From positions 90,694 through 154,693 of the forward strand of contig CALSUG010000005.1 in the NCBI GenBank assembly GCA_943789475.1: a stretch of DNA of 64,000 bases. Direction: 5' to 3'. Of this stretch, positions 45,630-53,931 are shown one piece after another; within the stretch, counting starts at the first letter, position 1, and every line of letters starts with the position of its first letter. The translations under genes and the position numbers were made by a program. The notes beneath the pieces are model-generated. The model worked only from the letters and a program-made list of their open reading frames with translations, was not told the origin of the DNA and made no database searches. This DNA comes from an uncultured Alphaproteobacteria bacterium. GTDB taxonomy: Bacteria > Pseudomonadota > Alphaproteobacteria > Micavibrionales > UBA1664.

Positions 45630-47825
45630 ATGAAGTCGGTATTTTTACGTGTAAAAAAATCAAAAGGTAATATTTTTGCTATGCTATTTGCAGCTGTCGG
45701 AATGACAGGTGTCCTTGGTGTCGTGGGGATGCAGACAGTGTCTGGACCGATTACCACGATCACAAAGGTAACGCAAAAAAATATTGTTGATACTGATTTG
45801 ATGACAAATGCCCGTATCGTTATTTTGAACGCAGGAATACAAGCCGCGGGCGGAGATTCAGATGGTGATAATTACGTTGAACCAGCGGCGCATAATACAA
45901 CATGTACGGCAAATCCAACGGGTGGTGGGTGTTTGCCAACGGATATTGGTGCGATTCAAACCGACCCATGGGGGACGTCATACGGATATTGTGTATGGGA
46001 TCATGGTTTAACAACAGGCTCCGCAAACAGATTAGAAGGTAAAGATAGTACCTCAGAACCCGTTATTGCGATTATTTCTGCGGGACGTGATAAAACATTC
46101 CAGACATCGTGTGAACCATTTGATGGTAGTGCACCAGAAGGATTACAACAAGTCGCAGGAAGTGACGACAGTGTTCGTATTTATTCGTATGACGCCGCGG
46201 TTGCAGGTGCAAATGGCCTGTGGCAATTAAAAACAAATGATCCAACAACGGCCGAAATCGTGAAGGATTTGGAAATTGGTACATTTGATGATGTTGCGGG
46301 TACAGGTTTTGGTTTTGATATTGGATCGGGTGAAAGTAAATTCCCGATTGTTTTTACAGACAATTTAAATGCATGGACATCGAACCATATTGCCGTGACA
46401 GGTGGCGTTCAATTGGATACACAAGCCAATGTGACCGCATGTGGTGCCGGTGATGCAGGGGCCATTCGTTATAATTCAGTAGCTGAAGTTATCGAGGTAT
46501 GTGACGGTGCTGGTGACTGGGATGGTGCGGATGAAACGGCGATCATTGACGAAGACGGCGATACAAAGGTTCAAGTCGAAGAAGGCGCCGACGACGACAC
46601 AATCCGTTTTGATACCGCGGGTACAGAGCGGATGGTTATTCATGATAGTGGTAAAGTTGGAATAGGTTCTAACAATACAACGAGCCATAAGCTCCTTGTT
46701 TCTTCATCAGGTGCAGATAATACTACTTTAGGGATTGCTGCAACTGGTACTGGTTACGCAGGGTTATATATTGATGCCATGAATGGCGATTTTGTAGGGA
46801 CCGATTATGGGATGTTGAATCAACGTGATGATGGTGTCTTACATCTAACGAATGCCGGCCCTAATAGTCTTCTTTTAAGGACGGATAATACCGATAGGGT
46901 TGATATTCAAGGTGATGGTGATGTTGCCGTTAACGGTACTGATTTATTCGTTGATGCATCTACAAATCGTGTTGGTGTGGGGACGATAACGCCTGAGAGA
47001 ACCTTAGATGTTGCTGGTGATGCACGTTTGCAACAAAATACTTATATTGGTACATCGGCGGATAATCACGGTTTAATTTCATACTCACCTAATATCGGTG
47101 GTGGTGAACCAGGGGTTATTTTACAAGGTGATACGGGTAAAGGCGTATTAATACGTGGTGATAATGGAGCCTCGACAGGTATGATTGTCAAAGTTAATGG
47201 CCGTGTTGGTATTGGAACGGTTTCTCCTGCCACAACTTTAGAGGTACAAGGAGGATCAATTTATCATCTGAACAGTGCTGGTACAGGGAGAGTTCGCCTT
47301 CATCATGGTACTTCATATGGTACAGTTGGTAGTGTTTCTAATACAAAATTTGCACTTAGAACGAATAATACGGATAAATTGACAGTATTGCCGGATGGTA
47401 ACGTGGGTATTGGTGAAATCAATCCCGATACACTTCTTGATGTTGACGGTCCGATCGAAATTGGCTCTGGTACATGTAATGTCAGTGGTCATGGTCGTTT
47501 GCAATATACGGCATTGGACAATATCCAATATTGTAATGGGGCGTCATGGCAAACAATTACGGGTTATGTCGACAGTTTGAATGATATTGGTGACGTTAAT
47601 GTTACGGGTGTTACAATTGGACAAACATTAATGTGGGATGGTACCGATTGGGTCGCGACAAGCACATTGAACGATGTTGGTACGGGTGATACTGACCTGT
47701 TGGTTGATAACGATAATGATACCAAGGTTCAGGTGGAAAAAAATGCGGATGAAGATTATATCCGTTTTGATACCGCGGGAAGTGAGCGTATGCACATCGC
47801 ACCAAAATGGTCGTATTGGTATTAA
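45630..47825 (+). CDS. pseudopilin-headed tail-fibre-like surface protein, N-terminal part (continues in another frame after 47807)
   Basis: N-terminus KKSKG-NIFAMLFAAVGMTGVLGVVGM (pilin/TadG-like hydrophobic leader). Also the GspG-like globular signature DPWGTSYGYCVW...VIAIISAGRDKTF, and the repeated motifs DGDTKVQVEEGADDDTIRFDTAGTERM and G.IRYN......E.CDG..W. Confidence 0.6.
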   Translation: MKSVFLRVKKSKGNIFAMLFAAVGMTGVLGVVGMQTVSGPITTITKVTQKNIVDTDLMTNARIVILNAGIQAAGGDSDGDNYVEPAAHNTTCTANPTGGGCLPTDIGAIQTDPWGTSYGYCVWDHGLTTGSANRLEGKDSTSEPVIAIISAGRDKTFQTSCEPFDGSAPEGLQQVAGSDDSVRIYSYDAAVAGANGLWQLKTNDPTTAEIVKDLEIGTFDDVAGTGFGFDIGSGESKFPIVFTDNLNAWTSNHIAVTGGVQLDTQANVTACGAGDAGAIRYNSVAEVIEVCDGAGDWDGADETAIIDEDGDTKVQVEEGADDDTIRFDTAGTERMVIHDSGKVGIGSNNTTSHKLLVSSSGADNTTLGIAATGTGYAGLYIDAMNGDFVGTDYGMLNQRDDGVLHLTNAGPNSLLLRTDNTDRVDIQGDGDVAVNGTDLFVDASTNRVGVGTITPERTLDVAGDARLQQNTYIGTSADNHGLISYSPNIGGGEPGVILQGDTGKGVLIRGDNGASTGMIVKVNGRVGIGTVSPATTLEVQGGSIYHLNSAGTGRVRLHHGTSYGTVGSVSNTKFALRTNNTDKLTVLPDGNVGIGEINPDTLLDVDGPIEIGSGTCNVSGHGRLQYTALDNIQYCNGASWQTITGYVDSLNDIGDVNVTGVTIGQTLMWDGTDWVATSTLNDVGTGDTDLLVDNDNDTKVQVEKNADEDYIRFDTAGSERMHIAPKWSYWY

Positions 47826-50800
47826 TCAAGATTTTGATACGACAGATAACGAAGCAACGGTTGCGATTACGGCATCGGCCGCAACATCAACAGGCGTTGC
47901 GATTAAAACAACAACGAATACGAATGCTGGTGCGGATCTTCATATGCATGCTTCAGGAGTGATCGCCGCGGATAATAATGTGACAGTGTTGATAGATGGT
48001 GAAAATTCTTCTACAGTTAGATATTTTGAAATTTCGAAAGATGCAAAGTTTAGGGATGGATCGCAAGAGCGTTTAATGCGTATTCAAGAAAATGGTCAAG
48101 CTCGTTTTTATAGTGATAGTTCTGCTATCATTAATTTAGAGCATACTTCGGCATCTGGCCAAAATAGGTATAGTCAATATGAAATGGGAGATCAAGACAC
48201 ACCTGTAACATGGGCTATGGGAGCGTATAGCCAAAACAATTTAACAGCATCAGCTCGAAATGATTTTTATATTTGGCAATATGTAGATCAAGCAAATTCG
48301 TCGGTTAATGTTCCTCGATTTTTGATTGATGATACAGGAAAAATTGGAATAGGAACTAATGCCCCTGCGGCTGCTCTTGATGTTTCTGGTACGGATGCTA
48401 TCTTGTTCCCACGTGGTATTGTGGGTAATCGTCCTGCGGCGCCTGTAAACGGTATGATGCGTTATAATACGGCCACGGGTAAATTTGAGGCGTACCAAGG
48501 TGGCGCATGGCAAGATATTTTGACATCGGGTGCGGGTAATGTTGCACACGCACTTGCCGATGCCGATAATGATACAAAAGTTCAGGTGGAAGAAAGTGCG
48601 GATGATGACACAATCCGTTTTGATACTGCGGGCGTTGAGCGGATGCGTATTGAGTCAAATGGTTGGGTTGAGATTAATAATCCGGCTCTGTCAAATGATG
48701 CAATTCAGTTTGAACCTCAATCTGGGTTTCACAGAATTGCAATGAACGATTTACGTCTTTATGATTGGAACCAAGCGATTTCGGGTGATTTGGCACGATT
48801 TAATAATGGTAAAATCGCATTGGGTGGTATTGACCAAGATGGTAGAGTAACGATTACAGGTGCAGCAGATATTGGCGCGGCAAATACCGTGGGGCAAGGT
48901 GCTCTTGTTATTCAGGATTCTGCTGGAGATGCGTCTGGTTGGAAATTACGCATAGATCCAAATGAAATGCAGGTTTCGAATAATGGTTCTGCATCAAGTT
49001 TACATTTAAATGCATTCGGTGGGGATGTATTGATTGGTAATGGATCTAACAATCTGGATTTGAAATCAGGGAAAATTGTCAATGTGGGTAATCCAACCGC
49101 GGCTCAGGACGCTGCGACAAAAAATTATGTTGATAATGCGATCGCGGGTGGTGATACTGATACAATCGATGGGTTGGATTCAACACAGTTCATTCGCTCT
49201 GATGCAGATGATAATGTGACGGGGCATACCGAATGGCAAGACAATAAAAGTGTCAGATTTGGTAATGGTGCAGATTTTCGTATTTGGCATGATGGTACTA
49301 ACCATGTTATGCGGAGCTATAAACATGGCGCACAAGTTTATCTTCAAGGTGAAGATGCTGGGGGAACAAATCGTACTATGATCTGGTTTGATCCTGATAA
49401 TGAAACACGTCTTTATTATCGAGGTGCTGAAAAGTTGAATACCCGCAGTAATGGTATTGAGGTGACTGGTGAAATATATGGTGCCGGATCGCATTACTAC
49501 GGTGATAATAAAGAAATCATTGGTTATAGTGATAGCTGGCTTCGTTTAAATCAAGCAGGTCATTTTTCAAGTGGTGTGTACACACCAGGTTTGTTCAGAG
49601 CCGACAATGGATTTCAAGTTGACGGCAATACGATTATTAACGGTTCAGGTACTGTAACTGGATCACGTGTTGGTAGTGGTGTTAATGGTGACAATATAAC
49701 TGATGGCACGATTGATAGTTCGGAAATACAAAATAATACGATCACTGAAGACGATATTATTGACAGCTTTAAGGCTAGGGACGCAGATAAGCTTGATGGG
49801 CTCAGTTCTGGTAGTTTCATTCGCTCTGATGCAGATGATAATGTGACGGGGCATACCGAATGGCAAGACAATAAAAGTGTCAGATTTGGTAATGGTGCAG
49901 ATTTTCGTATTTGGCATGATGGTAGTAACCATGTTATGCGGAGCTATAAACATGGCGCACGTTGGTATTTACAGGGTGAACATGCGGGGGGAACAAATCG
50001 TAATATGATTATCGCAGACCCTGATGATAGTGTTTACATGTATTATCAAAATGCCGAAAAACTGAGAACATCGCCCTCTGGTGTAGACGTTAGAAATGCA
50101 GTTAATGTTATTGGCGCGACATCAGGTAACGAAGGTGGTGAAATGCGTCTCTATACTTCTGATCCATATGATAGCACGTATGATTATTATCGTATTGATG
50201 CATTTCAGGATGATTTCCGAATTGGGCGGACATCGATTGGTGATGACTTTGTTTTGAAAAATACTGGTAACATTGGTATCGGTACGGATACGCCAGCAGA
50301 AAGACTTCACGTCAATGGTAATATTCTTGTGTCGCCTCATCATCCATATCTCAGGCTGCATGGCCCTGTAGGTAATGCATCTTTGGATATGAATGGCCCT
50401 AACGCCACAAAATCTTTCAGGATGCACTATGGTAATTCTGCTGACAATGTAGTTCGTTTTGGGCGCTTTTCGAATAATTTTATTTCTTGGGAGGCAAATC
50501 CAGTTGTGTTTGATCTGGATGCACCAAACGCCACCTTGAAATTAAGTGGAACTGGTAATGTCGGAATTGGAGTTATTGGGGCAGCCCCATCGCAAAAACT
50601 TCACGTCAATGGTAATATTCTTGCGTCGTCTTATCTGCACTCATCCGACCGTCGTTTGAAAAAGGATATCCGTGATATCGATAATCCATTTGACTTGTTG
50701 GATGCGATCCACGGTAAACATTTTGGATGGAAAAAGGATGATAAGACAGAATATGGTGTGATCGCACAAGATGTTCAAAGTGTGATGCCAGAAGCGGTTG

Positions 50801-51042
50801 TTGAAAGTGGCGATGGCTTTTTGGCCGTTGAATATGACCAATTGATTGCACCAGTGATCGAGGCGGTGAAACATGTTCGCGATATGGTTGTTGATGTGAT
50901 TGGCAAGGTTGAATCGTTGCTATCTCGTGTTGATGCATTGGAAAAAGAAAATGAGCGATTGCGCTCTGAAATCGATGCGTTAAAGTCATCAAGTGAAACA
51001 ATTTTGAATCGTCTGGAGGCGTTAGAAAAAAATGAAAAATAA
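47674..51042 (+). CDS. tail-fibre-like protein with C-terminal peptidase-S74 intramolecular chaperone domain (C-terminal part of the same gene; the real frame entry is near 47806)
   Basis: From NGRIGIN (47806) the repeat pattern of the upstream ORF continues. There are two T7-like fibre modules (FIRSDADDNVTGHTEWQDNKSVRFGNGADFRIWHDG.NHVMRSY...). The C-terminus reads SDRRLKKDIRDI...GVIAQDVQSVMPEAV...VEYDQLIAPVIEAVK, followed by a coiled coil. Confidence 0.65.
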   Translation: MLVRVILTCWLITIMIPRFRWKKMRMKIISVLIPREVSVCTSHQNGRIGINQDFDTTDNEATVAITASAATSTGVAIKTTTNTNAGADLHMHASGVIAADNNVTVLIDGENSSTVRYFEISKDAKFRDGSQERLMRIQENGQARFYSDSSAIINLEHTSASGQNRYSQYEMGDQDTPVTWAMGAYSQNNLTASARNDFYIWQYVDQANSSVNVPRFLIDDTGKIGIGTNAPAAALDVSGTDAILFPRGIVGNRPAAPVNGMMRYNTATGKFEAYQGGAWQDILTSGAGNVAHALADADNDTKVQVEESADDDTIRFDTAGVERMRIESNGWVEINNPALSNDAIQFEPQSGFHRIAMNDLRLYDWNQAISGDLARFNNGKIALGGIDQDGRVTITGAADIGAANTVGQGALVIQDSAGDASGWKLRIDPNEMQVSNNGSASSLHLNAFGGDVLIGNGSNNLDLKSGKIVNVGNPTAAQDAATKNYVDNAIAGGDTDTIDGLDSTQFIRSDADDNVTGHTEWQDNKSVRFGNGADFRIWHDGTNHVMRSYKHGAQVYLQGEDAGGTNRTMIWFDPDNETRLYYRGAEKLNTRSNGIEVTGEIYGAGSHYYGDNKEIIGYSDSWLRLNQAGHFSSGVYTPGLFRADNGFQVDGNTIINGSGTVTGSRVGSGVNGDNITDGTIDSSEIQNNTITEDDIIDSFKARDADKLDGLSSGSFIRSDADDNVTGHTEWQDNKSVRFGNGADFRIWHDGSNHVMRSYKHGARWYLQGEHAGGTNRNMIIADPDDSVYMYYQNAEKLRTSPSGVDVRNAVNVIGATSGNEGGEMRLYTSDPYDSTYDYYRIDAFQDDFRIGRTSIGDDFVLKNTGNIGIGTDTPAERLHVNGNILVSPHHPYLRLHGPVGNASLDMNGPNATKSFRMHYGNSADNVVRFGRFSNNFISWEANPVVFDLDAPNATLKLSGTGNVGIGVIGAAPSQKLHVNGNILASSYLHSSDRRLKKDIRDIDNPFDLLDAIHGKHFGWKKDDKTEYGVIAQDVQSVMPEAVVESGDGFLAVEYDQLIAPVIEAVKHVRDMVVDVIGKVESLLSRVDALEKENERLRSEIDALKSSSETILNRLEALEKNEK
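49189..49334 (+). repeat. intragenic direct repeat, copy 1
   Basis: 146 nt, identical to 49816-49961 except for one base (c/g). Confidence 0.9.
49816..49961 (+). repeat. intragenic direct repeat, copy 2
   Basis: Offset from copy 1 is 627 nt (209 codons, in frame). Confidence 0.9.
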
Positions 51043-52117
51043 AACATCTTTCTTTTTCCTGTTATGTGGATTTGTGATGATTTTATCACATGGGGTGATG
51101 GCCGCATGTTCATCACCATCTGGCTCTGCATCACAAACACGATATGACTTTGGTGCAAATAAATACTATTTCTGTGATAATACGGATTGGGTTGAAATTG
51201 GCGGCGGCGGCGGCGGTGATGGCGGCAGTGGATCTTGTGGATTGCCATGGGGGGGAACCATTGCAGATGGCGCGAACGTGACCGCGTATCAGCAAGCCTT
51301 ACCAAGTGGAGTAGCATGTGTTTCAGAAACCCGTATTTGCAGTAGCGGTGCTTTGTCAGGGTCTTATTTAAATCCTAGTTGTAACAATGGGTGTGCAGGT
51401 GGAACGATGGTTAGCTGGTCAAATTGTTCTGCAATTCGAATAAATGCAACACATGGCCAGAATAGAAACGTATCAGATCCAAGTCCAGGATATTGTCAGT
51501 CTGGTTGGTATGGTAGTCGTTCGTTTAGTTGTTCTAATGGAAGTTGGAGTGCTACAAATAGTGGAACTTGTTCATACCAAAGCATTGAGAGAGATTGTGG
51601 CAGTTGTTTTGCGGCGGGTAGTACGGTTTTGATGGCGGATGGTACGCATAAAGCAATTGAAGATATCAAAATCGGTGAATATTTGATGGGATCGGATGGC
51701 AAACCAACACGTGTGGTCGAATATGACCGCCCGATTATGGAATATCGCGATGGCGACCCACAACGTTTGATTTCGATCAATGATAAAGGGTATTTAATGA
51801 CGAATAACCACCCTGTTTTAACAACAGATGGATGGAAGGCCCTGTGGGTTGACGGTGCAGAATCCGAAGCCTATGATTTGTTAAAAGGCAAAGTATCTCA
51901 ATTGGATATTGGTGATGAAATCATCATGGCTGGCGATAAAACAATGATTGTTGAAACAATCAATGTTTTACAACATACCGAGGATACACGCCTTTATAAC
52001 TTTGTCTTGGACGGTGACCCTGTGTTTTATGTCGATGGTATGGCGGTGATGAGCTTTGTTCCGGATAAGGCGGGTAAATACACGGCTCACCTCGAACATG
52101 AAGGTGAACCGAAATAG
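51032..52117 (+). CDS. secreted Cys-rich protein with C-terminal Hint (Hedgehog/intein-like) autoprocessing domain
   Basis: Signal peptide MKNKTSFFFLLCGFVMILSHGVMA. Cys-rich N-terminal half carrying the same RY(D/N)...FCD..W motif as the fibre gene, and a poly-Gly linker. Hint block A CFAAGSTVLMADGTHKAIEDIKIGEYL and block B TNNHPVLTTDGW are present, with no terminal HN. The start overlaps the fibre gene stop by 11 nt. Confidence 0.65.
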   Translation: MKNKTSFFFLLCGFVMILSHGVMAACSSPSGSASQTRYDFGANKYYFCDNTDWVEIGGGGGGDGGSGSCGLPWGGTIADGANVTAYQQALPSGVACVSETRICSSGALSGSYLNPSCNNGCAGGTMVSWSNCSAIRINATHGQNRNVSDPSPGYCQSGWYGSRSFSCSNGSWSATNSGTCSYQSIERDCGSCFAAGSTVLMADGTHKAIEDIKIGEYLMGSDGKPTRVVEYDRPIMEYRDGDPQRLISINDKGYLMTNNHPVLTTDGWKALWVDGAESEAYDLLKGKVSQLDIGDEIIMAGDKTMIVETINVLQHTEDTRLYNFVLDGDPVFYVDGMAVMSFVPDKAGKYTAHLEHEGEPK

Positions 52118-52120
52118 GTT

Positions 52121-52151
52121 AAAAAAAGCCCCGTAAAAGGGGCTTTTTTTA
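52121..52151. terminator. bidirectional rho-independent terminator
   Basis: AAAAAAAGCCCC-GTAAAA-GGGGCTTTTTTT between convergent genes. Confidence 0.8.
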
Positions 52152-52550
52152 TTTTAAGATGTTCGTTTCTTCACAATCGCTTTTTGGAAAAGCGCCTTGT
52201 GTTTTTAAAAATTTACCGTCAGAGGAAAAAAGGATCGCGGGAGATTTTTTGTTACCACCAGATCTGCCTGCGGGTCTTTTATAACGCATATTATCATCTG
52301 TAATTTGATCAAGGTACAGGGCCATTAATCCCCAATCATCGGCAGTTGCGTTACACAAAATCATAACAGGAACATTCCCATGCTGTGTTGCAACCGCGAG
52401 TTGGTCAATATTCTTTGTTCCAACGTTACCGCTATAGGTTCTTATCTCTTCTTTAGCGGCTGGTTGCCCTGAAACGTTAAAAGGAGTGAGTAGTGTTAAG
52501 AAAAATGCAGAGAGTAAAATAGGTGAAATATGTTTTGTTAATTTTGTCAT
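52149..52550 (-). CDS. hypothetical secreted protein
   Basis: 133-aa ORF with signal peptide (ISPILLSAFFLTLLTPFNVSG). No motif recognised. Confidence 0.45.
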   Translation of the reverse strand: MTKLTKHISPILLSAFFLTLLTPFNVSGQPAAKEEIRTYSGNVGTKNIDQLAVATQHGNVPVMILCNATADDWGLMALYLDQITDDNMRYKRPAGRSGGNKKSPAILFSSDGKFLKTQGAFPKSDCEETNILK

Positions 52551-52574
52551 ATGGTGTTTTCCTTTTTTGTTGGG

Positions 52575-53510
52575 TTAATAGCTCGAAATATAAGTTGTAT
52601 TGTAATCGAATATTGCCATTTGATGTAATGGTAAATCAAATAATATAAGAAGTATAAAAAGTAGAATGTATATTTTCTTGTATTTAGGGGTGTAATAATG
52701 CGCTAATATTACACCCAAGATACAAAGTAGCATGCCAAAACCTAGAACCTGTGTGGGATAATAGGCAAGCAATATAAATTCACAAATAAAGACATGTGTA
52801 ATGTTCATCCATATCTTGTTTTTTGTATAAAGGAAGAGTCCGAGTGATATTGGGATAATTGTTTGTGTAAACAATGCGATGTAAGTCATTGCTTTTCCTA
52901 GCAACAATAATGTTTCTGTATGGTGGAGTTCAGCTTGTTGTAAGGTGCTATCCGTTTGTAGATTCCTTATCATTTCAGCGTTTGGATTAAGTATGTTTTG
53001 GTATGTTGTTTTAATTGTCGAGGTTTGTGATGTTAGGCCTTCAACAATTGCGGCATAAAAATCAAATATAGATCCAGATAAAACTGTGAACGTTAAAAAA
53101 TCTCCTGAACGAAATTCTGGCAGAGACCATTTCCATATCGATGCACCGATAAAAATTGTAAACAAACAAAGGAACGCGCAAAATTTCATAATGTCGTCTT
53201 TGTGTTGTGTGTAGATTGTCCCCATAAACATGAAAAGCAGCATATATAAGTGAATGAATTTTTGATTGCCGACAAATTGCCACCCTAGAATAACTATTGG
53301 TGCGAATATAAGTATTAGGCCAGCAAAGAATAGGGGGCTGTGTGCAATATTTCGATTTGCGATGAATAAAAGCAGAAAGGGCAGGGTGATAACTTCATAG
53401 ATATTATTTTTATATCCGTATAAGGCGGTTACAAAAACGATAAGGCCTGCAACAAGAGTGCAGAAAGATTCGTTAGATTGATTGGTTAGGGCTTTCATTC
53501 TTAACCTCAT
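52575..53510 (-). CDS. hypothetical polytopic membrane protein
   Basis: 311-aa ORF with about 9 hydrophobic segments; very AT-rich. Confidence 0.5.
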   Translation of the reverse strand: MRLRMKALTNQSNESFCTLVAGLIVFVTALYGYKNNIYEVITLPFLLLFIANRNIAHSPLFFAGLILIFAPIVILGWQFVGNQKFIHLYMLLFMFMGTIYTQHKDDIMKFCAFLCLFTIFIGASIWKWSLPEFRSGDFLTFTVLSGSIFDFYAAIVEGLTSQTSTIKTTYQNILNPNAEMIRNLQTDSTLQQAELHHTETLLLLGKAMTYIALFTQTIIPISLGLFLYTKNKIWMNITHVFICEFILLAYYPTQVLGFGMLLCILGVILAHYYTPKYKKIYILLFILLILFDLPLHQMAIFDYNTTYISSY

Positions 53511-53931
53511 GTGTTGCTTTTAGAATTTTTTTGACGGACTGATTGTTTGGATTATACTTAAAAGTCCAAACTTGTATAATACTGGTATGGTTTTGATGGG
53601 TGATTTTTTTTACTAATTTATTTGCATTTTCCTGGATGGGAAGGCTTAAATAACTTTCATATTCTTTAAAAAATAACGATCTAACGACTGACGAATCAAT
53701 ATGTATTATCCCTCCATTTTGATTGTTTTTTTGTTGTATTGTTAGCCAACGATTGCCGGGATAATCAATATTTGTATACATTCCCATTCCACCAAAATTC
53801 CAGCTAGTTGCATTTAAATTATTATATGCATAAAGGCTAAATAAAATAAAAAATGACGAGATGAGTGACAATATAAATAGTGAGATTTTAAGTGTATTAG
53901 GCATTTTTTGAAATTGTACTTTTTTTGACAT
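53473..53931 (-). CDS. hypothetical membrane-anchored protein
   Basis: 152-aa ORF with one N-terminal TM helix. Overlaps the downstream membrane gene by 38 nt. Confidence 0.45.
   Translation of the reverse strand: MSKKVQFQKMPNTLKISLFILSLISSFFILFSLYAYNNLNATSWNFGGMGMYTNIDYPGNRWLTIQQKNNQNGGIIHIDSSVVRSLFFKEYESYLSLPIQENANKLVKKITHQNHTSIIQVWTFKYNPNNQSVKKILKATHEVKNESPNQSI

Follow-up and report, generated by a model that had tools for sequence, protein, structure and literature searches.

A bacterial intein-like Hint domain lacking the terminal asparagine in a strain-variable, fibre-associated secreted protein of a Micavibrio-like bacterium

Bacterial intein-like (BIL) domains self-cleave in vitro and sit in variable secreted proteins, and their A-type members were reportedly described by Amitai et al. 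in 2003. The locus considered here encodes a relative of these domains in an uncultured alphaproteobacterium of the order Micavibrionales (UBA1664; GenBank assembly GCA_943789475.1; 1.97 Mb, roughly 40% GC, nine contigs). It lies in a window of 64,000 nucleotides (nt), the whole stretch of DNA that was analysed, on contig CALSUG010000005.1 (positions 90,694 to 154,693, forward strand). Positions 51032..52117 (+) of the window hold an open reading frame (ORF) for a secreted precursor of 361 amino acids (aa) and 38.5 kDa, the Hint protein, in which a signal peptide, a two-Cys module, a Gly linker, two disulfide-rich modules, a Hint domain and a short tail follow one another. A-type BILs, such as 2lwy, resemble it in having a Hint fold of about 150 residues with Cys1 and a block-B TxxH, and they too are housed in variable secreted proteins and not in conserved enzymes (PMC7765530). 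The nearest relatives of the Hint protein even end in LVHNK with no downstream nucleophile, as A-type BILs do. The differences lie at the C-terminus: A-type BILs have a terminal His-Asn, whereas the Hint protein has Met-Ser at this position and Asn is absent from 18 of 18 members of its subfamily; a conserved 19-residue tail has been added; and the domain is always the last, so that no C-terminal cleavage is possible.

Other described systems share further parts of this arrangement. The best match in fold is BIL2 of the Tetrahymena thermophila BUBL protein (6y75/6tmm; TM 0.83, E 1e-7), whose thioester allows the preceding domain to be transferred to a lysine on a different protein (PMC8616854). 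BIL2 differs in being eukaryotic, intracellular and located between ubiquitin-like domains, in retaining the terminal Asn (the crystallised form is the mutant N143A) and in sequence, with an identity of about 16%. Hedgehog and Hog proteins (PF01079, 1at0) likewise combine a signal peptide and a secreted cargo with a C-terminal Hint domain plus extension, and they cleave only at the N-terminal junction, x/Cys-Phe, without a terminal Asn, as is predicted for the Hint protein. The latter, however, has no sterol-recognition region of comparable size, and its lineage is bacterial with BILs as the nearest relatives. Pretoxin HINT domains (PF07591) are similar in their Sec export and in a variable partner domain that is swapped by recombination, and they are sometimes paired with tail-fibre repeats (PMC3482391). 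There, the Hint domain frees a downstream toxin, whereas here the variable part lies upstream of it. Finally, in T2-type phages the fibre gene gp37 is followed by the small partner gene gp38, a tip adhesin with a Gly-rich linker and a hypervariable segment, and this parallel, drawn from general knowledge, extends to S74 fibres, which have a self-removing C-terminal domain; at the present locus the S74 domain is on the fibre. The Hint protein shows neither sequence nor fold similarity to gp38 and no PHROG match, its locus lies on the chromosome and outside any prophage, and its self-removing device would be the Hint domain.

The Hint domain and its subfamily

Residues 192-342 of the Hint protein (51605..52057, +) form a Hint domain which, on profiles, alignment and a predicted model, is BIL- or mini-intein-like and not Hedgehog-type, with Cys1, block B and blocks F/G in place (LYNFVLDGDPVFYVDGMAVMSF). 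The initial annotation had proposed a Hedgehog/intein-like Hint domain; the intein-like part of this description stands and the Hedgehog part does not. The Pfam profile PF05203 (Hom_end_hint) matches with 50.1 bits (cut-off 32.1, E 4.7e-13) and spans block A only, residues 192-232. The Hedgehog Hint profile PF01079 scored 24.1 bits, below its cut-off of 29.7, and Hint_2 (PF13403), which we take to be the Pfam model of B-type BILs, reached 19.1 bits, below 28.4. The Vint model also stayed below its cut-off on the Hint protein, and PT-HINT (PF07591) did not match it, with faint near-cut-off matches in some relatives. A search of NCBIfam gave no family that names the protein and nothing beyond a weak local match to a radical SAM model that contains an intein.

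Comparison with known structures extends the similarity beyond block A. A phmmer search of the PDB sequences aligned Cys192 with Cys1 of PI-SceI, and a profile of six close relatives from the subfamily matched the C. thermocellum BIL 2lwy across blocks F/G (E 2.3e-7). In the AlphaFold2 model the Hint domain has per-residue confidence (pLDDT) values mostly of 80-96, with one dip to 71, and all 30 PDB matches that Foldseek gave for it at E<=1e-3 were BILs, inteins or Vint, another Hint-type domain. BIL2 headed these matches together with 2lwy (TM 0.78) and mini-inteins, and Hedgehog 1at0 matched weakly (E 1e-2, TM 0.59). The presence of a Hint domain, as first annotated, is thus borne out by both an above-threshold profile and the predicted BIL/mini-intein fold. 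A BIL-type rather than a Hedgehog-type origin is further indicated by the LVHNK ending of the nearest relatives from outside the subfamily. As one relative already carries the NCBI label 'Hint domain-containing protein', the domain call itself is not new.

The catalytic residues are largely retained. The Cys codon at 51605-51607, from which the domain had been said to start, encodes Cys192, i.e., the residue aligned with PI-SceI Cys1, and this Cys is invariant both in an alignment of 16 sequences and in 18 aligned subfamily members. Blocks A and B, also recognised at the outset, are recovered with Cys1 kept and TxxH as T257-N-N-H260; His260-Pro261 and the block-A motif MADG are invariant in the 16-sequence alignment, and the block-B consensus in the subfamily is T.NHP. 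The predicted scissile junction Ser191/Cys192 lies, by alignment, at 51602..51607 (+). The residue before Cys1 is Ser in 17 of the 18 subfamily members and Thr in the other, and all members have a Cys 2-5 residues upstream of the junction, usually with an Arg (in one case a Lys) nearby. Met340-Ser341 occupy the position aligned with the terminal His-Asn, whose absence had been correctly observed.

The extent of this loss among relatives was assessed with a HMMER scan over 1.8 billion representatives, which gave 2,682 matches at E<=1e-3; the best 150 were inspected for groups. Among these 150, most domains end in LVHNK, often in tandem (...HNK-GG-SCF...) and up to seven per protein, and like A-type BILs they keep His-Asn without a downstream nucleophile. 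A smaller group, the subfamily to which the Hint protein belongs, has Asn at the terminal position in 0 of 18 members, the terminal pair being Met-Ser in five, His-Gly in six and in the others a pair ending in Gly, Ser or Ala. In this subfamily the Hint domain is invariably the last of the protein, at the extreme C-terminus. There are also many metagenomic giants of up to 4119 aa (P0057-P0064 and others) with 2-7 tandem LVHNK-type Hint domains and short Gly linkers, some of which carry Laminin_G domains.

Directly after the Hint domain comes the hallmark of the subfamily, a conserved tail defined by alignment (residues 343-361, VPDKAGKYTAHLEHEGEPK; 52058..52114, +) with the motif VPD..G...H..GEP. 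Its 19 residues show no similarity to a known adduct- or sterol-recognition region, are modelled with low confidence (pLDDT 32-62) and are under purifying selection. The Hint domain itself is under strong purifying selection, with dN/dS values for the Hint region of 0.14 against the allele of strain variant L011 and 0.09-0.12 against that of L015.

With regard to classification, the domain is related to A-type BILs through its sequence and fold match to 2lwy, has no conserved terminal His-Asn and has the LVHNK group as its nearest outgroup. It does not qualify as an intein: there is no terminal Asn with a C-extein nucleophile but a 19-residue tail and then the stop codon, and in place of an insertion into a conserved site of a host protein there is a terminal domain on variable secreted modules. 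Pretoxin HINT is likewise not a fit, with no PF07591 match and no domain after the Hint domain. Judged by these residues, Asn cyclisation and splicing can be taken as excluded, and C-terminal cleavage with them, because both a terminal Asn and a C-extein are missing. The chemistry predicted to remain is an N-to-S acyl shift at Ser191/Cys192 followed by resolution of the thioester, which is consistent with the early suggestion of N-terminal cleavage or transfer without splicing: Cys1 and TxxH are kept and the Asn is gone throughout the subfamily. Moreover, the front half contains 12 Cys, an even number, and Cys192 is the sole Cys of the Hint domain, so that an active thiol would be compatible with an oxidising compartment.

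Outside the window, the genome encodes a second Hint protein (C5:166031-168370, -). Its 779 aa include a lipoprotein-like signal (LSAC) and a long Gly/Ser linker (GGSGNGGSGGGSGGNN), and a divergent C-terminal Hint domain that again lacks His-Asn starts at CFVAGTLIAMADGS.

Fibre association and the variable front half

The gene upstream of the Hint gene encodes a fibre (45630..51042, +) with a pseudopilin-like hydrophobic head, tail-fibre repeats, a Peptidase_S74 intramolecular chaperone (PF13884, E 7e-17, residues 991-1042 of the second of its two ORFs) and a C-terminal coiled coil. Its stop codon at 51040-51042 overlaps the Hint ORF, with its ATG at 51032, by 11 nt as originally reported, and a Shine-Dalgarno-like GGAGG (51015..51019, +) lies within the 3' end of the fibre gene, 12 nt 5' of the ATG. 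The overlap suggests that translation of the two genes may be coupled. Two more distant relatives (L001 and L002) have gaps of 14-29 nt and no overlap between fibre and Hint gene. The fibre matches phage tail-fibre PHROGs, and PHROGs holds no family for the Hint protein. A prophage locus was considered and rejected: the surrounding genes are not phage genes by PHROGs, and the likeness to tail fibres is confined to the fibre.

In the window the fibre is read as two ORFs (45630..47825 and 47674..51042), the frame being broken by one base at 47804 in an A-run (47804-47807). A DNA contig from run X1, which contains all sampled words of the stretch, has one base fewer exactly at 47804, and in strain variant L011 the fibre is intact as a single ORF of 2053 aa; the break probably reflects an error of assembly or variation within the population and not a dead gene. 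Further variation was noticed at 49189-49334 and 49816-49961 and in run X1. A DNA contig of X1 leads from 48632 back to 47400 by way of 778 letters of other sequence, and the repeat units of the fibre differ in number and order among relatives. The middle of the fibre is structurally variable across strains, as is the cassette of the Hint gene described below.

The closest named records with a Hint gene are Micavibrio-like alphaproteobacterial metagenome-assembled genomes (MAGs), and sequence of the locus is present in marine metagenomes. A scan for related loci, with six close Hint domains as the query, located a single Hint gene or a tandem pair directly behind an S74 fibre gene in two Micavibrio-like MAGs, L001 and L002, at the gaps given above. 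In two others the Hint domain is fused to fibre modules: in L003, two tandem Hint genes have fibre-like N-terminal halves of their own, and in L004 a fibre protein, at least 730 aa long, has the Hint domain and tail as its C-terminus. The gene is therefore adjacent to a fibre gene in the window, L001 and L002 and fused to fibre sequence in L003 and L004, in line with the fibre adjacency that the initial annotation had set as a test. The L001 orthologue contains collagen triple-helix repeats. Residues 414-502 of the L004 fusion score 26.5 bits with PF04917 (R64 shufflon pilus-tip constant region), just under the cut-off of 27.5; the R64 shufflon is another system that exchanges a fibre tip to alter partner specificity.

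The sampling of genomes covered six others of the same genus, eight of other genera of the family and 151 of the order. Matches to the Hint gene occur in 4 of the 151, and within the family in this genome only; S74 fibres are found in 11 of the 15 genomes of the family. In two genomes of the same genus (G039 and G018) an mlaC-like gene comes directly after the fibre, and in two others (G057 and G044) this place is taken by a secreted protein of 584 or 1121 aa with the same two-Cys N-module and no Hint domain. Similarly, the S74 fibre of G060 is overlapped by a gene that opens with the two-Cys N-module. On gene order and sequence, the slot after the fibre is a variable 'partner' position with a constant N-module, of which the Hint version is a rare occupant.

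The front half of the Hint protein starts with a signal peptide (residues 1-25; 51032..51106, +), predicted from the outset and evident on direct reading as MKNK, a hydrophobic core and VMA/A. Candidate cut sites are those for signal peptidase I (SPase I) and a lipobox-like MAAC, where a paralogue on contig C6 has LAAC. The Hint protein may thus be a lipoprotein, against which relatives with plain AxA sites keep the Cys of MAAC as the first Cys of the two-Cys module. This N-module (residues 26-56; 51107..51199, +), located by a pattern search for C..P.G...Y.......(Y/F)C.N..W, contains two Cys and reads CSSPSG...YYFCDNTDWVEI. That its motif is repeated from the fibre, as had been noticed initially, is apparent from the resemblance of CSSPSGSASQTRYDFGANKYYFCDNTDWVEI to the fibre module CNVSGHGRLQYTALDNIQYCNGASWQTI and to the looser CGAGDAGAIRYNSVAEVIEVCDGAGDW. 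A stricter form of the pattern, searched in six frames of the genome, has four matches, namely the fibre, the Hint gene, the C6 paralogue and an unrelated stretch of C2; apart from this chance match, the module is limited in the genome to the first three. Signal peptide and N-module are identical at the protein level in the strain variants (dN = 0).

A Gly-rich linker (residues 57-68; 51200..51235, +), read from the sequence and delimited by blastn as the left edge of the cassette, begins with the (GGC)5 run already noted (51200-51214). It is followed by module 2 (residues 69-120; CGLPWGG...VTAYQ...C...C...C, four Cys) and module 3 (residues 121-191), which is Cys-rich with five Cys plus Cys189. 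The Cys-rich modules of the first description are thereby confirmed, and the CGLPWGG...VTAYQ module is also seen, in tandem repeats, in secreted proteins from metagenomes with an Lcl_C or LCCL domain at the C-terminus. Because these proteins, besides the CxLPWGG repeats, open with the two-Cys module too, the front half appears on its sequence to be assembled from a common kit of small extracellular disulfide modules. Modelled alone it has a mean pLDDT of 68 and no significant fold match in the PDB, the best being complement sushi modules and vWC at E 0.37.

The C6 paralogue (C6:122782-123300, +) has 172 aa and the same signal peptide, two-Cys N-module and Gly linker, with 56% identity to the Hint protein across 61 residues; its C-terminal half is unrelated, Cys-free and without a Hint domain. 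Its ATG overlaps the preceding 97-aa ORF by 11 nt, and the region contains relaxase-like and transposase-like ORFs.

Modules 2 and 3 (residues 69-191) constitute a variable cassette (51222..51604, +), delimited by blastn against L011, L013, L015 and L016 and by comparison with the proteins P0002 and P0005. The metagenomic contigs L011-L016 represent the same locus, with an acetoacetyl-CoA-synthetase-like gene, the fibre, the Hint gene and a gene for a 133-aa protein. By blastn the flanks are 88-95% identical to the strain variants at the nucleotide level, and from 51222 to 51595-51625, i.e., from the Gly linker to the first Hint codons, no nucleotide similarity to them was detectable. Three alleles of the cassette have been seen, those of the window, P0002 and P0005. 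Replacement of this kind agrees with the published generalisation that BIL domains lie in the hypervariable parts of secreted proteins that are not conserved (PMC7765530). Furthermore, two metatranscriptome runs belonging to the same study yielded contigs that cover 50886-51046, 51184-51467 and 51324-51620 with 0 differences. This indicates that the locus is transcribed, and since the first contig contains both the stop codon of the fibre gene and the start codon of the Hint gene, it is compatible with co-transcription with the fibre.

Autocleavage and alternative readings

The reading that we favour, and regard as modestly probable on the sequence and the predicted model, is that the Hint domain of a Sec-exported precursor performs N-terminal autocleavage only and releases a strain-variable partner domain of the fibre. 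The precursor would be exported via Sec, after which the 12 Cys of the front half would oxidise and pair and the front half would fold, leaving Cys192 free. Aided by Thr257 and His260, Cys192 would attack the carbonyl of Ser191 in an N-to-S acyl shift, and the thioester would be resolved by water or another nucleophile, with hydrolysis as the default. The products would be a 16.9-kDa front domain (residues 26-191) and an 18.9-kDa fragment of Hint domain plus tail. Phage long tail fibres have separately encoded tip adhesins, and by analogy the freed domain would most likely be an exchangeable distal or partner piece of the upstream fibre, with the two-Cys N-module as a putative docking-type module. 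In a relative of epibiotic predators, such a piece would probably act in cell-surface recognition. Cleavage, the way in which the thioester is resolved, fibre binding and a role in contact with prey are all steps that we infer.

Several findings weigh against this proposal. Only block A rises above a Pfam cut-off, with Hint_2, PT-HINT, Vint and Hedgehog Hint below theirs or absent, and plain cleavage gives the conserved tail no explained role. The front half has no significant match among PDB folds, which makes 'adhesin' or 'tip' a guess from context. P0065, a distant subfamily member from a Pseudomonadota MAG, has no fibre neighbour, and the link to fibres would thus be a property of the Micavibrio-like clade and not of the whole subfamily. 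The Hint gene was found in 0 of the six other genomes of the genus and 0 of the eight from other genera of the family; as genomes of the genus keep the fibre and not the Hint gene, the fibre would work without it. In the marine lineage L015/L016, which has a third allele of the cassette, a 1-nt insertion breaks the Hint domain in two (L015 4345-4400 and L016 4106-4160; TTAAAGAAAGGGTAAGG vs TTAAAAGGCAAAG in the window), and the part past the frameshift still has a dN/dS of 0.09, which leaves three explanations for the insertion: a lesion of recent date, an error common to two assemblies or a frameshifting site. Finally, the contigs of the RNA runs could include carried-over DNA.

The conserved tail would have a role in ligation in place of release, a reading that we hold to be unlikely. 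Here a specific amine or hydroxyl would resolve the thioester and the variable domain would be joined covalently via Ser191 to the fibre (e.g., at a Lys, or at a new end created by S74 cleavage), to the envelope of the producer or to the surface of a contacted cell, and the tail would recruit or activate the nucleophile as the sterol-recognition region does in Hedgehog. The loss of Asn coincides with the gain of a conserved and selected tail that plain cleavage would not need, the Hint gene is tightly linked to or fused with fibres, the best structural match, BIL2, conjugates an N-terminal ubiquitin-like domain to lysines of other proteins (PMC8616854), and the Hedgehog Hint domain passes its cargo to cholesterol (PMC7765530). 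However, there is no candidate acceptor, the tail has only 19 residues and is modelled as disordered, and bacterial BILs tested so far mainly cleave (PMC7765530). The present data fit hydrolysis and transfer alike. We are similarly doubtful of a thioester-armed tip that is welded to the fibre or to the envelope of a touched cell, with the tail recruiting the acceptor. If true, such a tip would be the equivalent, in bacteria and outside the cell, of Hedgehog cholesterolysis and BUBL conjugation, and thioester welding would serve the assembly of surface fibres or irreversible attachment by a predator-like bacterium. The position of the domain also raises a role as a removable cap for folding, export or timing that is later shed, a counterpart of the S74 chaperone, with a Cys-rich, possibly oligomeric front half and a link to the fibre through shared regulation only. 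In L004 the Hint domain and tail indeed occupy the fibre C-terminus where other fibres of the family bear S74, the collagen repeats of the L001 orthologue point to a trimer, and the subfamily Hint domain is always terminal; yet no chaperone role is known for Hint domains, the upstream fibre has an S74 domain of its own, and the common N-module and conserved gene order favour a functional link to the fibre. We therefore judge a cap to be rather unlikely.

Catalysis might also have been lost along with His-Asn, leaving a degenerate Hint domain with a binding or structural role only, and the match of block A alone above a Pfam cut-off and the frameshift tolerated by one lineage would agree with this. 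It is nevertheless quite unlikely, as Cys1, Ser(-1) and the block-B Thr and His are kept across the subfamily and the Cys count leaves Cys192 unpaired; the strong purifying selection points the same way, although it is not by itself proof of catalysis. A polymorphic toxin-like effector, in which the Cys-rich domain would be a small toxin or bacteriocin-like payload and the Hint domain its releasing peptidase, appears very unlikely. The replacement of cassettes from strain to strain resembles the exchange of toxin tips, faint PT-HINT scores occur in relatives, and HINT is the releasing peptidase in Sec-exported polymorphic toxins, some with tail-fibre repeats (PMC3482391). In those toxins, though, the Hint domain precedes a C-terminal toxin, and here it is followed by 19 residues only and is not matched by PT-HINT; the modules recur in Lcl_C/LCCL surface proteins that are not toxins; and a toxin-immunity pair is disfavoured because no immunity gene co-varies, the neighbouring 133-aa gene being 92-95% identical under any cassette. 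Disulfide redox traps are known from engineered and natural inteins (PMC4031507), and a Cys189-x-x-Cys192 disulfide could similarly keep the Hint domain inactive until reduced. This idea is weakened by the Cys inventory, in which the five Cys of module 3 and Cys189 make three pairs and the even 12 Cys of the front half leave Cys192 free, and by the shift of the upstream Cys between -2 and -5 across the subfamily.

Neighbouring genes and significance

Downstream, a hairpin with an A-run, GCCCC-loop-GGGGC and a T-run (52121..52150, no strand assigned), read from the sequence as a bidirectional terminator, is common to the Hint gene and the convergent gene 52149..52550. The latter belongs to a trio of AT-rich genes at 52149-53931 (-), which encode a 133-aa secreted, a 311-aa polytopic membrane and a 152-aa anchored protein, none with a match in a Pfam search of the three products. 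The trio has 34% GC compared with 43-46% in the Hint gene, and it accompanies the Hint gene in the strain variants. As the fibre directly precedes an mlaC-like gene in G039 and G018, the Hint gene and the trio may have been gained or lost together.

Our literature search found no paper linking Micavibrio with Hint domains and no description of a Hint domain at fibre ends. The subfamily without the terminal Asn, in which a tail-bearing Hint domain ends proteins with a Cys-rich cassette, and its association with S74 fibres in Micavibrio-like bacteria appear to be undescribed. The role given to BILs in reviews is a general contribution to protein variability (PMC7765530). This locus provides a defined setting for them, in which the C-terminal chemistry has been abandoned, a tail has been gained, the domain is terminal in fibre-associated proteins and the cassette in front of it is swapped. 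As such, the question of BIL function becomes testable in terms of cleavage, acyl acceptor and fibre binding. Transfer of the acyl group, if it occurs, would give bacteria a new route to build or anchor surface fibres and would also provide a compact natural module for protein ligation. The hypervariable partner-gene slot of Micavibrio-like fibres bears, in turn, on how these bacteria recognise other cells.

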